From the NCBI GenBank assembly GCA_012212665.1, contig GCA_012212665.1_4517.1: a stretch of DNA of 64,000 nucleotides. The stretch is one strand, 5' to 3'. A program made the translations under genes and the position numbers. The stretch is from a phage. Positions 6,795-63,754 of this stretch are shown here, one piece after another. Position 1 is the first letter of the stretch. Each line of letters opens with the position of its first letter. The notes under the pieces were generated by a model. That model was not told where the DNA came from and did not search any database. It was given only the letters and a program-made list of their open reading frames with translations.

Positions 6795-7241
6795 TTAATA
6801 ACTCTGCAGAATGAATTTGAAATTATCAGCCAGAAGACGGTTCATTTCGGTGAGTGTTTGATATTCTGATGTATGATTGCGAGTGAATGCCAGAGCCAAT
6901 TGTCCTTTACCATAGCCAGTAGTCAGGGGTTTCATGTTCTTAGCTGCAACAAAGATTACATCGTATTCAATATTGTTAGTGCCCATGGTACGGGCGAGTT
7001 GTGAACGGCCTTGACGAATGTGAGAAAGAATTGCATCCAACCCTTGTTTAGAACGTTGACGACCTACAAAGAATCGTGCTGCCACTTGTCGCCAGTCAGA
7101 TGAACCTTTAACAAAGAAGTAAAAACCTTCACGAGAACGAAACTCTTTAGAAACTTCAGAACCGTATTCACCGTTACGAACTACTGCAACAACTTCACCG
7201 CCAACTGCCAGAAGGTCTTTACGAGTTAAATATTTGGACAT
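6795..7241 (-). CDS. ndd: Nucleoid disruption protein Ndd
   Basis: 148 aa; strong similarity to T4 Ndd (GFYF.V....RFYVGNQRSKQG..A.LSHIRQ.RSQLART...[41 protein letters not shown]). Confidence 0.85.
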
Positions 7242-7285
7242 GCTAATTTCCTCAATTGATTAATGTTTTTGTAATCCATGAGAGC

Positions 7286-7314
7286 ATTATACTCTGCTCT
7301 CAAGAGTTTGTACA
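7286..7314 (-). promoter_or_regulatory. Early promoter upstream of ndd
   Basis: Minus strand TGTACA-17 nt-TATAAT; a near-identical block recurs at 51952..51980. Confidence 0.45.
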
Positions 7315-7317
7315 ATT

Positions 7318-7518
7318 TTATTCGGCCATATCAGAACGTTCAAAAAGCTCTTCAACAGTTAAACATTCAGTGTCATCCTCGATAAAGAATCGGGTCCAAC
7401 ACGTTGGGGCGATGCAGTTATGAGTTTGTCCAGCTATAGAAGCTACACGAATAAGCTGCTGTCCATTATTCAGGACAAATTTTTCACCAATTTCAACATC
7501 TTTAAAAAGCTTAGCCAT
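7318..7518 (-). CDS. Hypothetical protein
   Basis: ORF of 71 aa; start placed at the second ATG, which has a GAGGAA Shine-Dalgarno; promoter immediately upstream. Confidence 0.4.
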   Translation of the reverse strand: MAKLFKDVEIGEKFVLNNGQQLIRVASIAGQTHNCIAPTCWTRFFIEDDTECLTVEELFERSDMAE

Positions 7519-7547
7519 TTTTGTATTCCTCATGTTTAAGTAGGACT

Positions 7548-7577
7548 ACTATACCATAATCCTACTGTGTTGTAAAC
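7548..7577 (-). promoter_or_regulatory. Early promoter, copy 1 of a perfectly duplicated 38-bp promoter block
   Basis: Minus strand GTTTAC-18 nt-TATAGT with TGG extended -10; block 7541..7578 is identical to 8053..8090. Confidence 0.55.
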
Positions 7578-7769
7578 AATTAAATTACATTAAAATATGT
7601 TAAAGCCAACCATGTTCCAGTGAACGAACATGCAATGTAAAAAACCGTATCACAAAATGTTCTTAGTACAATAAGAAGTGCATTTTTCATAAGTACCTCA
7701 ACACAATTGAAAATATTATACAAATCATTGGGATACTAAGCAACCATATTCCTATCCACATTTTAGAGC

Positions 7770-8033
7770 TCATATCTCAACTTCCGTGAGTTCCATATAT
7801 CCTTTGTTGATAACCTCTTTAAGGTCTTTAGAAAGAATAACACCAAAATGGTCGTTCATATGTCCATTAACTAAACGAGTTATTTCGGCTTCAGATGACA
7901 TATAAGGCACGTCTGAGTCCCAATGAGATAGACCTAAATGGGTATAAATCATCCCTTCGTCATCTGCCGTGTTGTACATTGAAACAAATTCGCCTGTTAC
8001 TTTATGTTTTGCGTAGAAAAATTTAAATTTCAT
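7770..8033 (-). CDS. Hypothetical protein
   Basis: ORF of 87 aa with AGAGGA Shine-Dalgarno; preceded by promoter copy 2. Confidence 0.45.
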   Translation of the reverse strand: MKFKFFYAKHKVTGEFVSMYNTADDEGMIYTHLGLSHWDSDVPYMSSEAEITRLVNGHMNDHFGVILSKDLKEVINKGYMELTEVEI

Positions 8034-8059
8034 GGTGTTATCCTCTTTTAGATAGGACT

Positions 8060-8089
8060 ACTATACCATAATCCTACTGTGTTGTAAAC
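8060..8089 (-). promoter_or_regulatory. Early promoter, copy 2 of the duplicated 38-bp block
   Basis: Identical to 7548..7577; GTTTAC -35 and TGgTATAGT -10. Confidence 0.55.
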
Positions 8090-8101
8090 ACTTTTATGAA
8101 A

Positions 8102-8659
8102 TTAAAGATGAAGATACCATCCGTTGTAGTTGCTCTTGCGGACGATTTTCTTTAGGTCTTCATGGTCTCCCACGAACTTTATAGAATAAGAGAAGACGTC
8201 AGGTGAGGTTTCTTTGACATTCAATATAATAATACAGTCAGCGACTCGATGATTCAGGAAGGGCCCTATGTTGATTCCGTTGCCGCCTGGATAATCACCA
8301 CTGTATCCTGTTGTAACAGAAATCCATTTAGAATCCATCTGATGTGTCTTGACTTCTACACGAATTCCACAATATTTGGGATGGGCTAACACATCCCATG
8401 CATATGTGTACGGGTCTTCTACGTCTTCATTACCTTTATTAACATATCCGTCTAGCCAATTTGCTACTACATACTCTGCAAAGACTGCAACCTTACAACG
8501 TCGAACTACATCTTCTTTGTTTTGGTCTGGATTTTGGCTCAGGGAATACCGAGCGGTGTCAGCAATCTTCACTTTCATTTCACTAGTCAAAAACTCATTC
8601 GACAGGATAAATGTCGGAAGATTCTTCAGTCTCAACAGTCCCAAGTTCGTCTTTACCAT
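8102..8659 (-). CDS. Hypothetical protein, possibly DenB-like (endonuclease IV position)
   Basis: ORF between ndd and rIIB as for T4 denB; start ambiguous (M1 at 8722, M22 at 8659, M49 at 8578); no motif confirmed. Confidence 0.35.
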   Translation of the reverse strand: MVKTNLGLLRLKNLPTFILSNEFLTSEMKVKIADTARYSLSQNPDQNKEDVVRRCKVAVFAEYVVANWLDGYVNKGNEDVEDPYTYAWDVLAHPKYCGIRVEVKTHQMDSKWISVTTGYSGDYPGGNGINIGPFLNHRVADCIIILNVKETSPDVFSYSIKFVGDHEDLKKIVRKSNYNGWYLHL

Positions 8660-8879
8660 AGATACCTCTGATGTGTAGTTCACCAAAATAAATGCGGTCT
8701 CCTTCTTCAAGATATTCTGCATCTACAGGTGGGATTTCAATAACAACTTCGTCGCATTCTAACCAGCCGTAGTGTGCATCACCAGGATGTTTTACCAATT
8801 TAGCACAATAAACTGATTTACACTTATGATGACCACGAAGATTAGCAATTTTGGATTCTGATACGTCAAATGGATGAAT
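8595..8879 (-). CDS. Hypothetical protein
   Basis: ORF in the rIIB-denB spacer; start placed at an internal Met; overlaps the preceding ORF depending on start choice. Confidence 0.35.
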   Translation of the reverse strand: MHPFDVSESKIANLRGHHKCKSVYCAKLVKHPGDAHYGWLECDEVVIEIPPVDAEYLEEGDRIYFGELHIRGIYGKDELGTVETEESSDIYPVE

Positions 8880-8924: not shown

Positions 8925-9860
8925 TTATTCTGCAAATAATTCAGTAACGTCTGAAATTACTTCATAACGACAAGTACGCATCTTAGCATCACCGTAGTCA
9001 ACCGGGATGGATACAACATCGCGTGGATGAACTTTAACTTTCACAACTTTATCTGAGCTTGAACCAAAGTGGCGAATATAAGATTTAGCACAAACGTGGA
9101 GACCGCGAGAACAGGTTTGAGTATCATCGTCGTTAACTCGAGTACGAGGCATTGAAACAACTTTACCTGGGGAGTTATCAAATGTACCACTATAGCAGTC
9201 TAAATAGTCTTTACGAACTACTTTCCACGCATAGAAATACCCATCTTCAGTGATTTCAATATCGTTTGCAACCAAGAAGTCGAATAAACGTTGTACAGCT
9301 TTTTCGCTTGGGTTTTCTAACAGGTTTTCAAGGAACGGCAGATAGAATTTAAAGTCTTCGCCTTTTTCCATAGAATCAATAATACGATTAACCAGTCCTG
9401 AACGAATTTCTATACCTTGATAAAATAAACTACCACCTTCAATAGTAACATTACCGTCAACAAACTTAGTAATAGCTTTCTTGATGTTAATAAGTTCGAC
9501 AGCTTTACTAAGGTTTCCTGCGACCAGATTAGCTTTAATTTCTTCAAAATTTGCATGACTTGATGGGGTCGCATTGTATGCTACGCGTCCTTCAATGATT
9601 GAAATAAATTTAGATGATGCGTTCCATACGATTTCTGGACGATGTCCGCCGATAATAGGTTCATTATTTTCTTGGACTTGTTCTTCGTCTTCAAATTCAG
9701 CGGCTTTCTCTTCGGCTTTAAAATTCTTAACAATCTTACGAAGAGTGTCAGTGGAAATATTGAAGTAATCAGCAATTTCCCGACGGGTCCATTGGCCTGA
9801 TTTAACCAGATCGTAAGCTTCTAACTGTTCTTCTTGAGACAAGCATTTAATATTGTACAT
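8925..9860 (-). CDS. rIIB: rIIB membrane-associated protein
   Basis: 311 aa; N-terminus MYNIKCL and C-terminal block RTRVNDDDTQTCSRGLHVC.KSYIRHFGSS.D.VVKVKVHPRDVVSIP.DYGDAKMRTC.YEVISDV match T4 rIIB. Confidence 0.9.
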   Translation of the reverse strand: MYNIKCLSQEEQLEAYDLVKSGQWTRREIADYFNISTDTLRKIVKNFKAEEKAAEFEDEEQVQENNEPIIGGHRPEIVWNASSKFISIIEGRVAYNATPSSHANFEEIKANLVAGNLSKAVELINIKKAITKFVDGNVTIEGGSLFYQGIEIRSGLVNRIIDSMEKGEDFKFYLPFLENLLENPSEKAVQRLFDFLVANDIEITEDGYFYAWKVVRKDYLDCYSGTFDNSPGKVVSMPRTRVNDDDTQTCSRGLHVCAKSYIRHFGSSSDKVVKVKVHPRDVVSIPVDYGDAKMRTCRYEVISDVTELFAE

Positions 9861-17233: not shown

Positions 17234-17259
17234 ATTATTCTCCTCTAGTCGATAGATTT

Positions 17260-17288
17260 ATAGTATCAAAACTAGAGGAGAAGTAAAC
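17260..17288 (-). promoter_or_regulatory. Early promoter inside a Shine-Dalgarno-sequestering inverted repeat
   Basis: Minus strand GTTTAC-17 nt-TACTAT; 12-bp arms UUCUCCUCUAGU / ACUAGAGGAGAA flank the -10, and the 3' arm contains the Shine-Dalgarno of the downstream gene. Confidence 0.55.
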
Positions 17289-17292
17289 AACT

Positions 17293-17712
17293 TTATGCGA
17301 AAGCAGCTGGGCTATATTTTTTAATTTGGAATTCAGGAACTACCATGAACTGACCAGCGAAAACGATGTTATAAAGCTTAACACCATCTTCAACCCATTG
17401 GTCACTAATAAATCCGGCGATTTGCTTAGTTTTCCATGGCGTTCCATCAGTTGCCGCAGCAATAGTGAATTCATGGTCTTTTTCAACAGAAACTGATCTG
17501 CATAGTCCCCATTTGAACGCTTTTTCTTCTGGCTCAATGAACTGGCTTGAGACGTAGCCAATATTACCGTTAGCATCACGAACTTTAACTTGGTTACGAC
17601 CAAAAACCGGATCACTCACAGAAAGAACTTCAACCAACTTCCCGGCAACTTTAGAGCGAGAAGCAACAGATACATATACGTAATCACCTGTAGAGAGATT
17701 TACAATATTCAT
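17293..17712 (-). CDS. Hypothetical protein, member of a tandem paralogue family (shared C-terminal SDQWVEDG..LYNIVF motif)
   Basis: 139 aa; C-terminus GFISDQWVEDGVKLYNIVFAGQF.VV shared with the next two ORFs. Confidence 0.55.
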   Translation of the reverse strand: MNIVNLSTGDYVYVSVASRSKVAGKLVEVLSVSDPVFGRNQVKVRDANGNIGYVSSQFIEPEEKAFKWGLCRSVSVEKDHEFTIAAATDGTPWKTKQIAGFISDQWVEDGVKLYNIVFAGQFMVVPEFQIKKYSPAAFA

Positions 17713-17721
17713 AATAATTCC

Positions 17722-18207
17722 TTAAGCTTTACGAGGAGACACATAGCGAGTGATTTCAGATTCTTTAACAACTCGGAAGTCACCTAAGAATACGATATTG
17801 TATAACTTTTCACCATCTTCAACCCATTGGTCACTAATGAAGCCACACATAGTATCAGTTTTGTTTGGATAACCGTATTCATCGATGAAGTCAAATTCTT
17901 TATCAGTCTGGAATTCAACACCTTTACACAAGGCCCATTTGAACTGTGCATTAGGCTCTGTGGATTCAACTTTTTCTCTTGAAGCAAAAGCACCACTCAC
18001 AGGAGTTTCCAAGAACTTTGCACGAACATAAGCAAATTGGGTGTCCTGTGTCCCATGACTAGGAATAATACGAACTTTTACCTCAGAATCTTCATCTTTA
18101 ACGCCTTCTTTAAGTTGAATACTTACAACTTCGACCAATTTTCCTGCTGCTTTAGAACGAGATTTGTTAGATACGCGAACGATTTCACCAATAATACCAA
18201 GATTCAT
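17722..18207 (-). CDS. Hypothetical protein, tandem paralogue family member
   Basis: 161 aa; C-terminus GFISDQWVEDGEKLYNIVFLGDFRVV; N-terminal region also resembles the 17293..17712 product (KSRSKAAGKLVEV.S). Confidence 0.55.
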   Translation of the reverse strand: MNLGIIGEIVRVSNKSRSKAAGKLVEVVSIQLKEGVKDEDSEVKVRIIPSHGTQDTQFAYVRAKFLETPVSGAFASREKVESTEPNAQFKWALCKGVEFQTDKEFDFIDEYGYPNKTDTMCGFISDQWVEDGEKLYNIVFLGDFRVVKESEITRYVSPRKA

Positions 18208-18236
18208 AATTTTCTCTCTTTGTTTAAGTTGAATTC

Positions 18237-18266
18237 ATTATACTCCATCCGTCCTTGGATGTACAA
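18237..18266 (-). promoter_or_regulatory. Early promoter (variant of the TTATACTCCAACCATCCTTGGTTGTAAAC family)
   Basis: Minus strand TTGTAC-18 nt-TATAAT upstream of the 17722..18207 gene. Confidence 0.45.
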
Positions 18267-18268
18267 CA

Positions 18269-18763
18269 TTAATTAAGGATATTAACCACAGCACTACGTG
18301 GAACTACACTAAAATCACCTGCATGAACAACGTTCAGAAGTTCAACACCGTCTTCAATCCACTGGTCAGTTACCCATCCATTTACTGGACCTGCGAACGG
18401 GCGTCGAATTGAAACATATTTACACAACAAATCAGTAGGCTCAATAGGCTTAATCAGAGTACCGTACATACAAGCGATATCCATATCAATACAGATGTCT
18501 TTAACGGGTTCTACTTCTTCAATCAACAGTTCAAAGTCGGTGCTTGGAAGGGCGGTAGTAGAAATTGTACCATATGAATTTTTAATTTCTAAGAATAACC
18601 AAGGGCCTTCAGCTTGTTTGATGAAGTTAACAATAGTGAAACTATTGCCTTGAGTGGCACCTAAAATTTCACAAAACTTTTCGTAAGCTCGCACTGAAGC
18701 ACTGTACCAGTTGATTTGTTTTTCGTCTTTCAGGATGTAAGTAGCCGTAGTATTGATATTCAT
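18269..18763 (-). CDS. Hypothetical protein, divergent tandem paralogue family member
   Basis: 164 aa; C-terminus GWVTDQWIEDGVELLNVVHAGDFSVV. Confidence 0.5.
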   Translation of the reverse strand: MNINTTATYILKDEKQINWYSASVRAYEKFCEILGATQGNSFTIVNFIKQAEGPWLFLEIKNSYGTISTTALPSTDFELLIEEVEPVKDICIDMDIACMYGTLIKPIEPTDLLCKYVSIRRPFAGPVNGWVTDQWIEDGVELLNVVHAGDFSVVPRSAVVNILN

Positions 18764-18794: not shown

Positions 18795-18824
18795 ATTATA
18801 CTCCAACCATCCTTGGTTGTAAAC
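18795..18824 (-). promoter_or_regulatory. Early promoter (conserved family block)
   Basis: Minus strand GTTTAC-18 nt-TATAAT; 30-bp block nearly identical to 60774..60803 and 61794..61822. Confidence 0.55.
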
Positions 18825-18829
18825 TGATT

Positions 18830-19507
18830 TTATCGCTGTTTTACACTTATCGGGTCAGGATTCTCAGGGACATCTTCAAGGCCAAGCGCATAACGCTGAG
18901 CATATTTTAACATCAAAATATCTTTAGCACAATCATGAACACTATCATGGGCAACGAATCCTTTTAGCGTACCCATCGGTAATGGACACATACTTAATCC
19001 TCGTGTCAACGAGTAAGCTTCGATTGCCGTACGAATATCGCGTTGAGCCCAGAATTTAACCGGTTCTAATTTATCAGTATCAATATCTGGTTCAAGAACA
19101 CCTTCATCACGATAGAGATCACGAATCAAATCGACCAATATCGGGAAGTCAAAGCTCATACCACGGCACCACATCTGTGATTTCCATTGGTCAACTTTAT
19201 TAGCTCGACAATAATCTAAAAAGATTTTAATGCCTTCAAGCGTAGTGACATCGTCTTCAGACGGGGCCAGGTTTTTACGTGCTTCTGCCGATTGTTCTTT
19301 CCACCATTTCATAGTGGATTTAGCGAAAACTCGCTTCCCTTTTTGAGAAGCTAAATTAAATTTAATTCGCTTACCTCGTTGAACAAGTTCTTCGAATGAT
19401 TCAACAACTTCAGGGTCTGAATTATATGCAATAACCGCAAGGTCAATAACAGCCGCTTTTGATGTATTGCCGAATGTTTCAAAATCTATAATAACATCAG
19501 TGCTCAT
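18830..19507 (-). CDS. dexA: Exonuclease A (DexA), DEDD-type 3'-5' exonuclease
   Basis: 225 aa; N-terminal D.E motif (VIIDFETFG); T4 synteny with dda. Confidence 0.8.
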   Translation of the reverse strand: MSTDVIIDFETFGNTSKAAVIDLAVIAYNSDPEVVESFEELVQRGKRIKFNLASQKGKRVFAKSTMKWWKEQSAEARKNLAPSEDDVTTLEGIKIFLDYCRANKVDQWKSQMWCRGMSFDFPILVDLIRDLYRDEGVLEPDIDTDKLEPVKFWAQRDIRTAIEAYSLTRGLSMCPLPMGTLKGFVAHDSVHDCAKDILMLKYAQRYALGLEDVPENPDPISVKQR

Positions 19508-19516
19508 AATTTTCTC

Positions 19517-20830
19517 TCAAATAAAATGGACGTCAAAACGACCACGAGTTGTGCCGACATACAATAACTGTTTAGCTAATTCTGAATCAGCATAATGGAT
19601 ACACGGTGTATAAACAAAGGCCGTGTCAACAGACATACCCTGGGCCTTATGGAAGGTTGATACTGGTAGTGCCTTTACCTTAGTGAACATACGTTTAGCA
19701 TCCCAGAATTCACTCCATGGAGCTTTACCACCTTTATTCCAGAATTTGTATGTTTCTGCAGTCTTAGCCAAAAACAAATTGAATTTATAAAGCTCTTCTT
19801 CAGAAGAAATAACCTTTATATCCTCGCGGACATATTCTTCGTCATCCCCATATGTTTCTACTGTAAGATTCCAGTATCGTATCATATATTCGCCTGAAAC
19901 ACCACGCGCTTTAACGAATGTAGTCGTTTCTACAGCATCTCGAATACGAACGAATTGCCCGTTATTGAAAAGCATTTCAGTCATATTTTTGCCATCTAGC
20001 TTATACGTCTTGGTAAACGGCTCTTGTAGAACAATGACTTCATCTTTAATAAATGGCTTTTCTGTTTCGAGAAGTTTTCGGCGAATAATTGAATTTAACT
20101 TGTCCACCGACTTATTTGTGAATGCCATCATTCGATTTTCGAAAAGGTCTTCAGGAGTTTTAACGACATTAAAATAGTTCATCATATACGATTTAAGGTC
20201 TGTATATCCATGAACACCATGCCCGTCAACTACTTTATCATAAATCCATTTGCCATTACGAATATCGGTCGCAACATCAATAATTGGTGCATTGCTACGT
20301 TTAACTTCTGTAAGGTCGCATTGCACGAAGTCTTTGTGCGTGAAGAAAGGACTTAGATACGCAGTGGATTCGCCGGGGTCGACCGGACGAATCTGACATC
20401 GGTCACCGATTCCAATTACTGTACACCATTTAGGGATACTAGCTAACATTATTTTAAACAGAGAACGGTCACACATTGACGCTTCATCAAATAACAGTAC
20501 ACGACACAAGGCTAAGTCGGGAACCTTTTTCTGTTCAAATAATACGTTTTCTTCGTATGTAGTTGGGTTGATTTTAAGAATGCTATGAATAGTCGATGCT
20601 TCTTGACCCGCAAGTTTGCTTAGAACCTTTTTAGCAGCATGTGTAGGGGCTGCTAAAATAATACCTGATTCTCCGGCGGAAATAAGAGCTTCAACGATGA
20701 ATCTAGTAAGAGTTGTTTTACCTGTACCAGCAGGCCCGTTAATAGTTACGTGATGTTTCTTTTCTTTAATAGCTTTCATAACAACGTTGAAGGCGTTTTT
20801 CTGGCCTTCGGTCAAATCATCAAATGTCAT
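19517..20830 (-). CDS. dda: Dda DNA helicase (SF1B)
   Basis: 437 aa; Walker A GPAGTGKTT and SF1 motifs; matches the T4 Dda N-terminus. Confidence 0.9.
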   Translation of the reverse strand: MTFDDLTEGQKNAFNVVMKAIKEKKHHVTINGPAGTGKTTLTRFIVEALISAGESGIILAAPTHAAKKVLSKLAGQEASTIHSILKINPTTYEENVLFEQKKVPDLALCRVLLFDEASMCDRSLFKIMLASIPKWCTVIGIGDRCQIRPVDPGESTAYLSPFFTHKDFVQCDLTEVKRSNAPIIDVATDIRNGKWIYDKVVDGHGVHGYTDLKSYMMNYFNVVKTPEDLFENRMMAFTNKSVDKLNSIIRRKLLETEKPFIKDEVIVLQEPFTKTYKLDGKNMTEMLFNNGQFVRIRDAVETTTFVKARGVSGEYMIRYWNLTVETYGDDEEYVREDIKVISSEEELYKFNLFLAKTAETYKFWNKGGKAPWSEFWDAKRMFTKVKALPVSTFHKAQGMSVDTAFVYTPCIHYADSELAKQLLYVGTTRGRFDVHFI

Positions 20831-27689: not shown

Positions 27690-28349
27690 TTAACCTCGAT
27701 TCATAAATGCATTAAATATTTGGTCATCAACAGAAATTTCTAATTCGGCTTCAATTGCTTCAGCCTTTTCTTCAGGTGGTAATTCGTATCCACACACTAC
27801 AATTTTTTCATCGATATCAAAATATACAGAAGCAATACGATTAATGTTACTTTCAGTTAAGTCTAAATCAACATCAACATCTTTTTGACCTACACTTAAA
27901 GGATAACTAATACGGGTTATTTTATTATCTTTAACAAAGAGTCCACCAACATACTCTGTACTACGTTTGAAGTTTACACGTTTCCGAATTGAAAGATATG
28001 ATACATCTTTACCGTGAGCTCGGCTCATAGGACATAATGAATAGCTAGAATAAGAGATGTCAAATCCTACACCTTCAATATGAGCCAACGTGTCATGAGT
28101 AAACCAATTATAATCATATGCCAAATCCATTAAATTATAATATGTGAAAGGCACTGGATTAACATCATATGTTGTACCTTTAAAATCAGCCCAGGCAACG
28201 ATTTCGTTATCTTTAACAATTACAAAAATTACACCAATATGGTATCCGTTATTATTTTCATTCGGCGTTATATTATAACATTGTGCATTAGGAAATTTAC
28301 CATATTTAAATGGTGCGTTTTTGTGCATGTAATAAATCATATTATTCAC
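27690..28349 (-). CDS. Hypothetical protein
   Basis: ORF of 219 aa. Confidence 0.5.
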   Translation of the reverse strand: MNNMIYYMHKNAPFKYGKFPNAQCYNITPNENNNGYHIGVIFVIVKDNEIVAWADFKGTTYDVNPVPFTYYNLMDLAYDYNWFTHDTLAHIEGVGFDISYSSYSLCPMSRAHGKDVSYLSIRKRVNFKRSTEYVGGLFVKDNKITRISYPLSVGQKDVDVDLDLTESNINRIASVYFDIDEKIVVCGYELPPEEKAEAIEAELEISVDDQIFNAFMNRG

Positions 28350-28635
28350 CTGTGATTTCGGTTACGATATCTTTGTTATCGAAATTAGGGTCACAATACA
28401 AAACATAGTTGTACTGCATGATACCGCCAGACTTAAGTTGTTCAACAACTTTATTAACCATATTAGGACGGTCTCGTTTAGTGATGTTCATGATATCAGA
28501 GAAGATTTGTTGTTCAACATCTTCTTGATTTGCAGTCATTGACCACTCACAGAGGTCTTTATCATAACCTGCTGTAACTGGAGCTGGTGCACATGATACT
28601 GCGAGTAAGATTGCTGCCAATGATAACTTTTTCAT
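28342..28635 (-). CDS. sp: Spackle periplasmic protein (superinfection exclusion, lysozyme inhibitor)
   Basis: 97 aa with signal peptide; GYDKDLCEWSMTA and KSGG.MQYNYVLYCD match T4 Sp (gene 61.3). Confidence 0.8.
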   Translation of the reverse strand: MKKLSLAAILLAVSCAPAPVTAGYDKDLCEWSMTANQEDVEQQIFSDIMNITKRDRPNMVNKVVEQLKSGGIMQYNYVLYCDPNFDNKDIVTEITGE

Positions 28636-28663
28636 TTTAACTCCTTAGTTGATTTGATAGGAC

Positions 28664-28694
28664 TACTATACCATAGTCCATCTATAATGTAAAC
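28664..28694 (-). promoter_or_regulatory. Early promoter upstream of sp
   Basis: Minus strand GTTTAC...TGGTATAGT; shares the GGACTACTATACCATA block with 7541 and 8053. Confidence 0.5.
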
Positions 28695-28698
28695 AAGT

Positions 28699-29951: not shown

Positions 29952-29978
29952 TTTGTTCTCCAGTAGTTGATAGGTCTA

Positions 29979-30006
29979 TAATAACACAACTACTGGAGAA
30001 GTAAAC
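29979..30006 (-). promoter_or_regulatory. Early promoter inside a Shine-Dalgarno-sequestering inverted repeat
   Basis: Minus strand GTTTAC-17 nt-TATTAT; 12-bp arms CUCCAGUAGUUG / CAACUACUGGAG flank the -10 and the 3' arm carries the Shine-Dalgarno. Confidence 0.55.
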
Positions 30007-30381
30007 TTAAAAACGTAATTTAGATATATCTGCGTTGATTTCGTTTTGGTTTGCGTCGTATGCAATTAAACGAACCGCTTTAGATGGGTCATTCAATGCA
30101 TAGAAATGATGGAACATTGCTCGAACGATATCACCATTTACGAGTTCTACCTGGATAGGAGAACCTTTTTCGAGTTGGAAATGTTCATAAGCTTTGATGG
30201 TTCGCAGATAATCAAGTTTTTGATTTCCAGCTCCAACTATTTGTACGATACGTTTGCCCATGTTTTCCATACGAGATACAATAGTTTTAGGAGCAAGAAT
30301 AACGTAGGTTGCCAGTGGAGAAACTACTTCAACAGTTGTGTTTTCGGTGATTGCAGTAAAAATTGCTTGAGACATATTCAT
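30007..30381 (-). CDS. Hypothetical protein
   Basis: ORF of 124 aa. Confidence 0.5.
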   Translation of the reverse strand: MNMSQAIFTAITENTTVEVVSPLATYVILAPKTIVSRMENMGKRIVQIVGAGNQKLDYLRTIKAYEHFQLEKGSPIQVELVNGDIVRAMFHHFYALNDPSKAVRLIAYDANQNEINADISKLRF

Positions 30382-51951: not shown

Positions 51952-51980
51952 ATTATACTCATCTCTCAAGAGTTTGTATA
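51952..51980 (-). promoter_or_regulatory. Early promoter (copy of the ndd-type promoter block)
   Basis: GAGAATTATACTCATCTCTCAAGAGTTTGTA closely matches 7281..7315. Confidence 0.45.
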
Positions 51981-52220
51981 TTATTTTTTAAGCATGAAAA
52001 GTAAGTAATTTGTATCACGTGGAGTAATATCAACACCCATATCAAAGATGCCTTTATAGATTGGGTATTTGTTTTCGGTTGTATCGAAGCTGAAACTATT
52101 TCCATCACAACTAACAGTAATAGCATCTGTTAAAATGTCATACTCAATCCTAACAATTGAATTACCAATTTTAACGTCGAGGTGTTTTTTGAATTTGATA
52201 AAATCTAATTCTTGGGCCAT
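51981..52220 (-). CDS. Hypothetical protein (55.x)
   Basis: ORF of 79 aa. Confidence 0.45.
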   Translation of the reverse strand: MAQELDFIKFKKHLDVKIGNSIVRIEYDILTDAITVSCDGNSFSFDTTENKYPIYKGIFDMGVDITPRDTNYLLFMLKK

Positions 52221-53351: not shown

Positions 53352-53379
53352 TTTATTTTCCTCTATAGTAGATGGTTTA

Positions 53380-53408
53380 ATCTTAACACATCTATTGAGG
53401 ATGTAAAC
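53380..53408 (-). promoter_or_regulatory. Early promoter
   Basis: Minus strand GTTTACATCC-17 nt-TAAGAT. Confidence 0.45.
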
Positions 53409-53485
53409 TGTTTTATGAAAATATTTTTGATTTGAGAGGGGCACAAGGAGATAGTGAAGTGAAGATTCCAATGGATTATATTAGA

Positions 53486-60773: not shown

Positions 60774-60803
60774 ATTATACTCCAACCATCCTTGGTTGTA
60801 AAC
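60774..60803 (-). promoter_or_regulatory. Early promoter (conserved family block)
   Basis: TTATACTCCAACCATCCTTGGTTGTAAAC on the forward strand, i.e. GTTTAC-18 nt-TATAAT on the minus strand; near-identical to 18795..18824. Confidence 0.55.
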
Positions 60804-60807
60804 TGAT

Positions 60808-61767
60808 TTATGATTTTAACGCATTCATTGCGTTAAAAAGTTTAGAGTACTGCAACTGGAGCTTAGTAACTACTTGTTGAGCATCACGAAGCTTAGCTTG
60901 TGCTTTGTCAAGTTCAACAGACAGTTGGTCCATAGTGGCCTTGATTTGATTGTAATGGTAATCTTCGACCGGAAGAAGGTCATTAGAAACATTTAGTTTT
61001 ACTGCAGACAGTTTGCACACATTTGGCAAACCTTTAAACATTGATTTACCCGAAGTAGAATAAGCACTTAGGACTTCGGCCTGTTCAATTGGGGTCCCAG
61101 TAAGCGATGCTTCAAACAATGCATTTTCCTTTTTAAGATTTTGATAATATTCGGAGTCTTTGTGCCACCATGGCGCAGGAACCTTTTTACCAATAGATAC
61201 ACGAGCCTGGATAGCGATATGGCCCTTATTCTTGATAGGGTCGATAATATTAAGCTCACGAGAATAAATTGCTTTAATCTGGTGGATATTATCACCTAAC
61301 ACTTCCAACGCTTGGTGGAATACACGAGCAACGTTATCATTCTTAGGTTTATACGTAAGAGTGAACTCATTCTCACTGATAACCATGATTTCCAACTTAT
61401 CGTAAGTATATTTCAAATGTTTCATGTTAATTGCTTGAGGACGAATACGAGAAGCAATGGCCATCAGATTGTTAAGGTTATTCCGGAACTGCTTAGCGAA
61501 ATATTGTCCTTCACCGCCAATACAAAAATTACGAAGTTTCTGTTTGGCTAATAAACGGCTGAACTCACCATTTTTAATGAACTCTTTAACGGGTGTGTTA
61601 GTAACGCATTCAAATTGGGTAAACATACGAGAAGTAATCCCATAATATGAACAGATTTCCTCAATCTCTTCAGGAGTCTTTACAGGCATACGGATAGGAT
61701 TAGGTCCTGGAGTATATGCGTTCGAGGTAAATTCTTTGATAAGTTCTCTACGTGTAATAAAAGCCAT
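60808..61767 (-). CDS. Hypothetical protein with C-terminal coiled coil
   Basis: 319 aa; C-terminus QLSVELDKAQAKLRDAQQVVTKLQLQYSKLFNAMNALKS. Confidence 0.5.
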   Translation of the reverse strand: MAFITRRELIKEFTSNAYTPGPNPIRMPVKTPEEIEEICSYYGITSRMFTQFECVTNTPVKEFIKNGEFSRLLAKQKLRNFCIGGEGQYFAKQFRNNLNNLMAIASRIRPQAINMKHLKYTYDKLEIMVISENEFTLTYKPKNDNVARVFHQALEVLGDNIHQIKAIYSRELNIIDPIKNKGHIAIQARVSIGKKVPAPWWHKDSEYYQNLKKENALFEASLTGTPIEQAEVLSAYSTSGKSMFKGLPNVCKLSAVKLNVSNDLLPVEDYHYNQIKATMDQLSVELDKAQAKLRDAQQVVTKLQLQYSKLFNAMNALKS

Positions 61768-61793: not shown

Positions 61794-61822
61794 ATTATAC
61801 TCCAACCATCCTTGGTTGTACA
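61794..61822 (-). promoter_or_regulatory. Early promoter (conserved family block, -35 variant TGTACA)
   Basis: TTATACTCCAACCATCCTTGGTTGTACA block upstream of the 60808..61767 gene. Confidence 0.5.
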
Positions 61823-63408: not shown

Positions 63409-63435
63409 GTTTTACCTCCAGTAGTTGATAGGTCT

Positions 63436-63464
63436 ATAATAACATAACCATAGACCTTGTAAAC
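63436..63464 (-). promoter_or_regulatory. Early promoter
   Basis: Minus strand GTTTAC-17 nt-TATTAT with the GGTCTATAATA block shared with 4971 and 29971. Confidence 0.5.
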
Positions 63465-63466
63465 AA

Positions 63467-63754
63467 CTAAAAGAAACTTTTTTCAGTATTTTTTCCACTG
63501 AACCAAACAGACTTCGGGATTTTTTGTAATTTTTCAGATTTAAGTTTCTCTTCCTGTTCTTTCTTATATACACTCTTGTCGTACTGGAGCATCTCTATGG
63601 CATTCTTTTGCAAATGATCTAAGGTAATTAAGGCTTTAGTTTTTCCTTTCAAGGAAGAGTCCTGGCGAACTTCCTCGCTATATTGCATCGTAGAACTAAC
63701 CATACGATGTGCATACAGTTCGACTGCGGCTTTGATTTTTTGCATAAAATCCAT
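63467..63754 (-). CDS. Hypothetical protein
   Basis: ORF of 95 aa. Confidence 0.45.
   Translation of the reverse strand: MDFMQKIKAAVELYAHRMVSSTMQYSEEVRQDSSLKGKTKALITLDHLQKNAIEMLQYDKSVYKKEQEEKLKSEKLQKIPKSVWFSGKNTEKSFF

Follow-up and report, generated by a model that had tools for sequence, protein, structure and literature searches.

Two copies of a 38-bp block lie in the denB-ndd interval of the analysed 64-kb stretch of phage DNA (hereafter the window). They are best explained, with a probability of about 0.8, as paralogous T4-type early promoters of the sigma-70 class that were homogenised by a short non-reciprocal exchange in this genome, that gave rise to a reciprocal deletion in the relative JM10, and that carry a hairpin which may mark or insulate a cassette boundary. 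The RB69 orthologues of these promoters were predicted as early as 2006; the new element is how the perfect identity arose.

The 38-mer, TAGGACTACTATACCATAATCCTACTGTGTTGTAAACA on the plus strand, occurs at exactly two sites, 7541-7578 and 8053-8090, precisely where the sequence-only reading had placed a perfect duplication. No further match with up to three mismatches was found in the 64-kb window, and none of 100 shuffled sequences contained any match, in line with a chance expectation of 0. No exact direct repeat in the window is longer, and five of the six exact repeats of at least 24 bp are early-promoter blocks. The two copies are direct repeats 512 bp apart; their 60-nt contexts are 88% identical, and the identity ends at the block borders.

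The window derives from an RB69-like Mosigvirus, with Escherichia phage CAU_ECP01 as the best match (97.8% over 3.5 kb; 99.3% identity in the denB-ndd interval). On the minus strand the order is rIIB, a 108-aa ORF, a denB-like gene, copy 2, an 87-aa gene, two mini-ORFs, copy 1, a 66-aa gene, a separate promoter and ndd. The features of this region are as follows.

8925-9860, minus strand: rIIB
8102-8722, minus strand: denB-like gene
8053-8090, minus strand: copy 2 of the block, beginning 11 nt past the denB stop codon; GTTTAC at 8089-8084, TGg at 8068-8066, TATAGT at 8065-8060; putative start at about 8053 (+/-2); precedes the RB69ORF270c-like gene
7770-8033, minus strand: RB69ORF270c-like gene downstream of copy 2, 87 aa (ATG at 8033), phrog_2390
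7687-7773, minus strand: mini-ORF of 28 aa, ndd.5-like, phrog_8851 (PHROG E=4e-11)
7580-7690, minus strand: mini-ORF of 36 aa, phrog_18561 (PHROG E=1e-26), annotated in CAU_ECP01
7541-7578, minus strand: copy 1 of the block; GTTTAC at 7577-7572, TGg at 7556-7554, TATAGT at 7553-7548; putative start at about 7541 (+/-2); precedes the ndd.1-like gene
7318-7518, minus strand: ndd.1-like gene downstream of copy 1, 66 aa (ATG at 7518), phrog_2183 (PHROG E=6e-31), SD GAGGAA; ndd.1 in the RB69 annotation
7286-7315, minus strand: separate early promoter of ndd, TTGTAC-18-TATAAT, with hairpin arms GAGAGCA/TGCTCTC; orthologue of RB69 Pe:165022
6795-7241, minus strand: ndd

The corresponding interval of the T4 group is occupied by other small genes in a longer series, ndd.6 to ndd.1, and the RB69ORF270c-like gene has a homologue in that group with about 70% DNA identity. 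Since the gene content differs between the T4 and RB69 groups, the denB-ndd interval represents a hyperplastic region. The block had been described as driving two adjacent small genes; each copy does precede an SD and an ATG, but the description is slightly simplified, because two conserved mini-ORFs (28 and 36 aa) also lie between the copies. These overlap each other (7580-7773) and complete the 512-bp cassette between the two promoters. BLASTP of the 66-aa against the 87-aa downstream protein gave no alignment. The two proteins are thus unrelated, and a gene-level duplication was rejected.

A diverged third copy upstream of sp had also been reported. It is real, although its coordinates had been off by 1-2 nt.

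28658-28695, minus strand: third, diverged member of the subfamily, 32/38 identical (hand count), directly upstream of sp
28342-28635, minus strand: sp (spackle), phrog_1586 (E=2.9e-42)

We next consider the promoter reading. Both copies read GTTTAC-aacacagtaggattaTGg-TATAGT on the minus strand, and each is composed, in order, of an A/T-rich tract, GTTTAC, aacacagtaggatta, TGg and TATAGT. The extended -10 element TGg stands immediately 5' of TATAGT in both copies, while copy 2 of the relatives typically has TGa. Where GTTTAC-18 nt-TGgTATAGT had been read, the elements are indeed present, but the 18-nt T4-style spacer includes the TGg; in sigma-70 terms the arrangement is TTTACA-17-TATAGT. By direct reading of the sequence, the 25 nt upstream are A/T-rich and UP-like (taacatattttaatgtaatttaatt in copy 1 and tcttcatctttaatttcataaaagt in copy 2). 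Searched with the strict motif GTTTAC-N17/18-TATNRT, the window yields 13 occurrences where 0.21 would be expected, and every one of them is on the coding strand. Additionally, both copies came out on top of the interval in a generic sigma-70 scan, with 10/12 matches plus the TG. The usual distance from the -10 element to the start is 7 nt, from which we infer that host RNA polymerase would initiate at roughly 7541 and 8053; a GAGGA(A/T) SD with an ATG lies 20-23 nt downstream of this putative start in both copies. With starts at these positions, almost the whole 38-bp block would therefore lie upstream of its own transcript.

A middle promoter was considered as well. The MotA box of T4 middle (MotA-dependent) promoters is (a/t)(a/t)(a/t)TGCTTtA, centred at -30. 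The -30 region of the block, GTTTACAACAC, contains no TGCTT, and this candidate was rejected.

T4 early promoters are composites of UP, -35, TGn and -10 elements (Hinton 2010, PMC2988021). The block shares with them the A/T-rich upstream tract, GTTTAC(A), TGn, TAnnnT, the 17-bp sigma-70 spacing and the coding-strand position upstream of early-gene orthologues (PMC1524935, PMC2988021). In RB69, early promoters were predicted by HMM at 165233-165283 (Pe:165283, score 37.9) and 165745-165795 (Pe:165795, score 40.3) (Nolan et al. 2006 supplement, PMC1524935), which by position are orthologous to copy 1 and copy 2, respectively. A literature search for published start-site or RNA-seq data on RB69-type phages returned nothing relevant. 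Because of the motif enrichment, the SD and ATG placement, the composite structure described by Hinton and the RB69 predictions, and consistent with the top sigma-70 scores, the putative assignment of both blocks as early promoters appears well supported, and it already stands in the literature as a prediction for the RB69 orthologues. Each block (UP-like A/T tract, GTTTACA, TGn, TATAGT) would then head a small early-gene cassette in the denB-ndd hyperplastic region.

The comparison with relatives bears directly on the perfect identity. Both blocks are found in RB69, p000v, phiC120, phiE142, HX01, PhAPEC2, PHB12, ESCO47 and two metagenomic contigs, where they differ from each other at the same four fixed sites (34/38 identical). 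Typically, copy 1 reads ACACAG...GGATTATGG and copy 2 reads ACTAAG...GGACTATGA. Unlike in RB69 and about 153 relatives, whose paired promoters differ at the four sites, the pair in the window is identical: its copy 2 carries the copy-1 base at all four sites and differs there from every relative examined. The region affected can be delimited as follows.

8066-8080: minimal conversion tract in copy 2, with diagnostic sites at 8066, 8071, 8079 and 8080 and a further one, 8063, in comparison with the closest relative; the tract could extend at most over 8053-8090

The relatives were surveyed in an annotated phage collection, an IMG/VR survey having yielded only three loci. Copy 2 with its unique flanks gave no match above 95% among 50,697 phage records and 153 records at 91-95%, while six records match copy 1 and its flanks at 99-100%. 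The 38-mer itself occurs in 22 records, each of which has a single copy, and no record has two. The converted copy-2 junction is absent from the phage records, IMG/VR and the JGI metagenomes. Over 7174-8254 (1,081 nt), the window differs from CAU_ECP01 at seven positions, of which five fall within the 18 nt of 8063-8080, and all five carry the copy-1 base.

As judged from this one genome, the data are most simply explained by gene conversion confined to this lineage, in which copy 1 donated a short patch of 15-38 bp to copy 2. By gene conversion or a template switch, the copy-1 spacer would have been moved into copy 2 and left the blocks identical. The closest relative has the copy-1 donor haplotype, in keeping with an intragenomic event. 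A point against conversion is that little homology flanks the tract to support it, 9 bp at one end and 13-14 bp at the other. In CAU_ECP01 and PHB12 the -10 element of copy 2 is TACAGT; if this were the ancestral state here, conversion might, speculatively, also have restored TATAGT. On the sequence comparison, the blocks are best regarded as two old paralogous promoters homogenised in this genome only, with no fresh duplication.

The last point concerns the reading in which a promoter-plus-gene unit underwent a recent tandem duplication. Such an event would leave direct repeats like these, 512 bp from each other and both preceding a small gene. Yet the downstream proteins are unrelated and the identity stops abruptly at the block borders; moreover, about 153 relatives, RB69 among them, have both promoters and both genes at these positions, and their two blocks match each other at 34/38 sites. 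As a source of the identity, tandem duplication is refuted by the population comparison and is barely conceivable.

Independent point mutations, or convergent selection for a stronger promoter in copy 2, would also produce matching blocks, and consensus positions are expected to converge where both are selected as promoters. The four sites, however, lie in the spacer and at the n of TGn, which are non-consensus positions that vary freely among the other promoters of the window. All four carry the exact copy-1 base and cluster in 15 nt, against only two other differences from the closest relative in the surrounding 1 kb, and the copy-2 spacer is otherwise essentially invariant in 153 genomes. 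This makes independent change extremely unlikely.

Since the converted state is unique among all public sequences searched, and paralogous repeats can mislead consensus polishing, we also weighed an artefact, in which copy-1 reads were mis-assigned to copy 2 during assembly or polishing, or an in vitro feature. Against this, blocks of 38 bp with unique flanks and four mismatches are spanned unambiguously by ordinary reads, and a private SNP at 8035 together with otherwise normal divergence looks like a natural genome. An artefact is therefore unlikely, and gene conversion remains the preferred origin of the identity. The SNP at 8035 lies 3 nt before the ATG of the 87-aa gene (ACACCATG here and ACATCATG in most relatives examined); it is independent of the conversion tract, because copy 1 cannot account for it.

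The suggestion that the exact repeats are substrates for recombination is supported both by this conversion and by the Mosigvirus JM10. In JM10, denB is followed directly by ndd.1, and the 512-bp cassette is missing. The single remaining promoter joins the left flank and spacer of copy 2 to the right flank of copy 1; its junction, AAAAGT-GTTTACAACTAAGTAGGACTATGATATAGTAGTCCTAT|TGAAACATGAGG, is unique to JM10, with the crossover inside TATAGTAGTCCTA(T). Given this hybrid promoter and the loss of the cassette, the two copies do recombine in nature. The same pair of blocks would thus cross over reciprocally to delete the cassette, so that one locus exhibits both outcomes, non-reciprocal homogenisation in this genome and reciprocal deletion in JM10. 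Reciprocal excision of a mini-circle followed by its re-integration was set aside as the source of the identity, as it would swap the spacers and not make both copies of the copy-1 type.

The locus supports a picture in which genes of hyperplastic regions are shuffled as modules, with promoter blocks as the linkers between them. Because its two copies match at 38/38 positions, this phage would be expected to show more frequent loss or excision of the 512-bp cassette than relatives with 34/38. It is an ordinary case of recombination between promoter cassettes of these phages; no new kind of element is revealed, and no long-standing question is answered.

The block further contains an inverted repeat around the -10 element, TAGGA(T/C)TA ... 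TAGTCCTA, which predicts a hairpin in each copy.

7539-7566, minus strand: hairpin of copy 1, with an 11-bp stem AGUAGGAUUAU / GUAGUCCUACU and a loop GGUAUA over most of the -10 element; RNA fold -15.2 kcal/mol, z=-3.76
8052-8077, minus strand: hairpin of copy 2, with a 10-bp stem including G.U pairs; RNA fold -11.4 kcal/mol, z only -1.6

In RNA, the hairpin of copy 1 is extended by pairing of GUUUA (from the -35 element) with UAAAC. We examined covariation over 15 distinct subfamily members, which include the sp promoter of the window, the orf212 promoter of JS98 (another genus and another locus) and the T4 promoter upstream of dmd. In the stem register, 85.6% of cells are paired, compared with 28-63% in slid registers. 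Six stem pairs show changes on both sides, a number reached by 0/500 shuffles, although most of the double changes come from three of the 15 related sequences (T4 Pdmd, JS98 and PhAPEC2). The covariation is supportive but not conclusive, because the sample is small and these three sequences dominate it.

As the two arms are located upstream of the block's own start or right at it, the hairpin is foldable only in read-through transcripts, and would form solely on RNA entering from an upstream promoter. After the stem, the tail reads UCUAAAAGAGG in copy 2 and UUAAACAUGAGG in copy 1, and a terminator scan called neither block. With no U-tract, the hairpin is not a canonical terminator, and an intrinsic-terminator reading of the block is not supported. 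An Rfam search of the block gave no match at E<=1.

The inverted repeat flanking the -10 element may also be read as a palindromic DNA site, that is, a cruciform, an operator bound by a dimeric protein of phage or host, or a site for a structure-specific nuclease, with the promoter hexamers secondary; a recombination protein has been speculated to target the stems of the published PeSL elements discussed below (Arbiol et al. 2010, PMC2839356), which would favour such a role. But as DNA the copy-2 hairpin folds at -1.7 kcal/mol (z=+0.5), no better than shuffles, and the cruciform reading was rejected on this ground. The stem also needs G.U/U.G pairs, which occur solely on the mRNA-sense strand and are mismatches in DNA and on the opposite strand. 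The arm sequences vary among family members, which argues against one sequence-specific binding protein. We consider a palindromic DNA site very unlikely, and the inverted repeat is better read as an RNA hairpin within a promoter.

We asked how widely this feature is shared by the early promoters of the window. In a rule-based set (n=18), spacer-leader complementarity was higher for own than for cross pairs (p=0.015-0.024), and the spacer-shuffle z averaged -1.85, with 8/18 below -2 (Wilcoxon p=1e-3). A hand-curated set gave p=6e-4 and a stricter automatic set p=0.05-0.1. As the significance varied among the three promoter sets, we grade the enrichment as moderate and confined to some of the promoters. 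For T4 it did not reach significance, with the feature found in 2/9 promoters.

The T4 dmd early promoter (T4 about 20,560-20,612) is a close parallel. It has the same core, ACTATGGTATAGTAGTC, and a 10-13-bp stem around the -10 element (GACAAGACTA/TAGTCTTGTC; spacer-shuffle z=-6.8). Its arms differ from those in the window by compensatory changes, its outer arm is unrelated, and it stands at another locus before another downstream gene.

Promoters inside RNA hairpins are known from the T4 genes e, soc, 49 and I-TevI, where late promoters are involved and the SD or AUG is sequestered (reviewed in PMC3014915). As in that type of control, only transcripts from upstream promoters fold the hairpin. 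In contrast, the hairpin of the 38-bp block ends 7-12 nt before the SD, which is thus excluded from it. Several sibling promoters in the window, at 30006, 17288, 30440 and 53408, have the SD in the 3' arm.

A promoter subfamily at 29958-30021, 17240-17303, 63416-63479 and 53360-53423, has spacers that pair with the leader, including the SD, in 12-14-bp stems (CTCCAGTAGTTG/CAACTACTGGAG at 30006 and CTCCTCTAGT/ACTAGAGGAG at 17288; RNA folds of -20 to -22 kcal/mol, z about -5.4). Judging from these folds, the SD would be sequestered in read-through transcripts and free in the promoter's own transcripts.

Upstream of copy 1 there is a separate terminator-like hairpin on the minus strand at 7611-7632, CATGTTC-8 nt-GAACATG followed by GTTGGCTTTA, inside the 36-aa mini-ORF and about 30 nt upstream of the -35 element. 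This weak hairpin might attenuate read-through into copy 1.

The arrangement is reminiscent of the promoter-early stem-loop (PeSL) cassettes of RB49/phi1, T4/PST and nt-1/KVP40, in which recombination deletes or inserts ORFs (Arbiol et al. 2010, PMC2839356; Comeau et al. 2014, PMC4122927); the ndd region is itself affected in T4/PST, a published PeSL example (PMC4122927 Fig. 6A). As in those cassettes, repeated units of a strong sigma-70-like early promoter, a stem-loop and an SD/ATG stand between small non-essential ORFs of a hyperplastic region, and recombination of neighbouring copies yields indels between close relatives, represented here by the JM10 deletion. The mini-circle crossovers of RB49/phi1 lie between the -10 element and the SD (PMC2839356), the same zone as the JM10 crossover. 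Likewise, the T-even stem consensus AGNA-loop-TCNT has its counterpart in the AGGA...TCCT of the block.

The differences are equally clear. PeSLs have a stem-loop just upstream of the promoter that serves as terminator or attenuator, whereas the stem-loop in the window straddles the -10 element, the 5' arm falling within the spacer and the 3' arm covering -7 to about +3, and is not located upstream of the -35 element; there is no intergenic room for one there, because stop codons fall 3 and 11 nt before the -35 elements. The block contains no poly-G/poly-C and no U-tract, and a terminator function is not evident. Non-reciprocal homogenisation is not described for PeSLs either, and the term gene conversion does not occur in the 2010 text (PMC2839356). 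As the stem-loop is neither upstream nor terminator-like, we file the blocks as a T4-type early promoter pair that behaves like PeSLs without being canonical members of that class.

By analogy with the PeSL stem-loop, for which such a role has been proposed, we infer that the hairpin may mark or insulate the cassette boundary. A more far-reaching proposal, which we regard as tentative and rather doubtful, is that the hairpin in this subfamily, and in about 40% of the window's early promoters, is a functional RNA element on read-through transcripts, so that promoter and hairpin would form a portable unit, kept uniform by gene conversion and used as a preferred crossover point. Each small-gene cassette could then be insulated in that RNA arriving from upstream is attenuated, processed or silenced at translation. 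If true, this would extend the PeSL idea to the RB69 group, with the promoter inside the stem-loop, and would add concerted evolution of promoter copies as a mechanism.

Further promoter repeats and family members were noted along the way. A second exact early-promoter repeat, of 36 bp (ATTATACTCCAACCATCCTTGGTTGTAAACTGATTT), lies at 18795-18830 and 60774-60809, 42 kb apart, with a 27-bp third copy at 61794-61820. Unlike the 38-mer, the 36-mer block is found in two copies in the majority of 144 Mosigvirus records and is thus a duplicate that has been kept stably; near-exact promoter duplicates are ordinary in this group. The ndd promoter at 7286-7315 is 79% identical over 57 nt to a promoter at 51952-51981, 44.7 kb away, and its arms GAGAGCA/TGCTCTC correspond to GAGAGA/TCTCTC there, a compensatory change from C-G to A-T.

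In JS98 (Dhakavirus), a block of the same subfamily at 1495-1560, about 86% identical and with arms GGTAGGACT/AGTCCTACC, stands upstream of orf212, a novel ORF inserted between cd.3 and cd.2. Such a location suggests that the promoter block moves together with ORF cassettes.

The leader downstream of copy 1 (7519-7545) exists in two haplotypes among Mosigvirus genomes, CTTAAACATGAGG or CTGAAACATGAGG versus TCAAAACA(A/C)GAGG or TCAAATCAAGAGG. The second resembles the leader of the sp promoter, TCAAATCAAC, which hints at further exchanges among members of the promoter family.

Finally, positions 17324-18379 contain three paralogous coding segments in tandem, which share 62-74% identity over 92 nt and include a 28-bp exact repeat at 17382/17811. 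Two of the segments are preceded by early-promoter blocks (17288 and 18824), and a promoter-like repeat copy lies at 18223-18272. The region looks like a tandem array of promoter-plus-gene cassettes.
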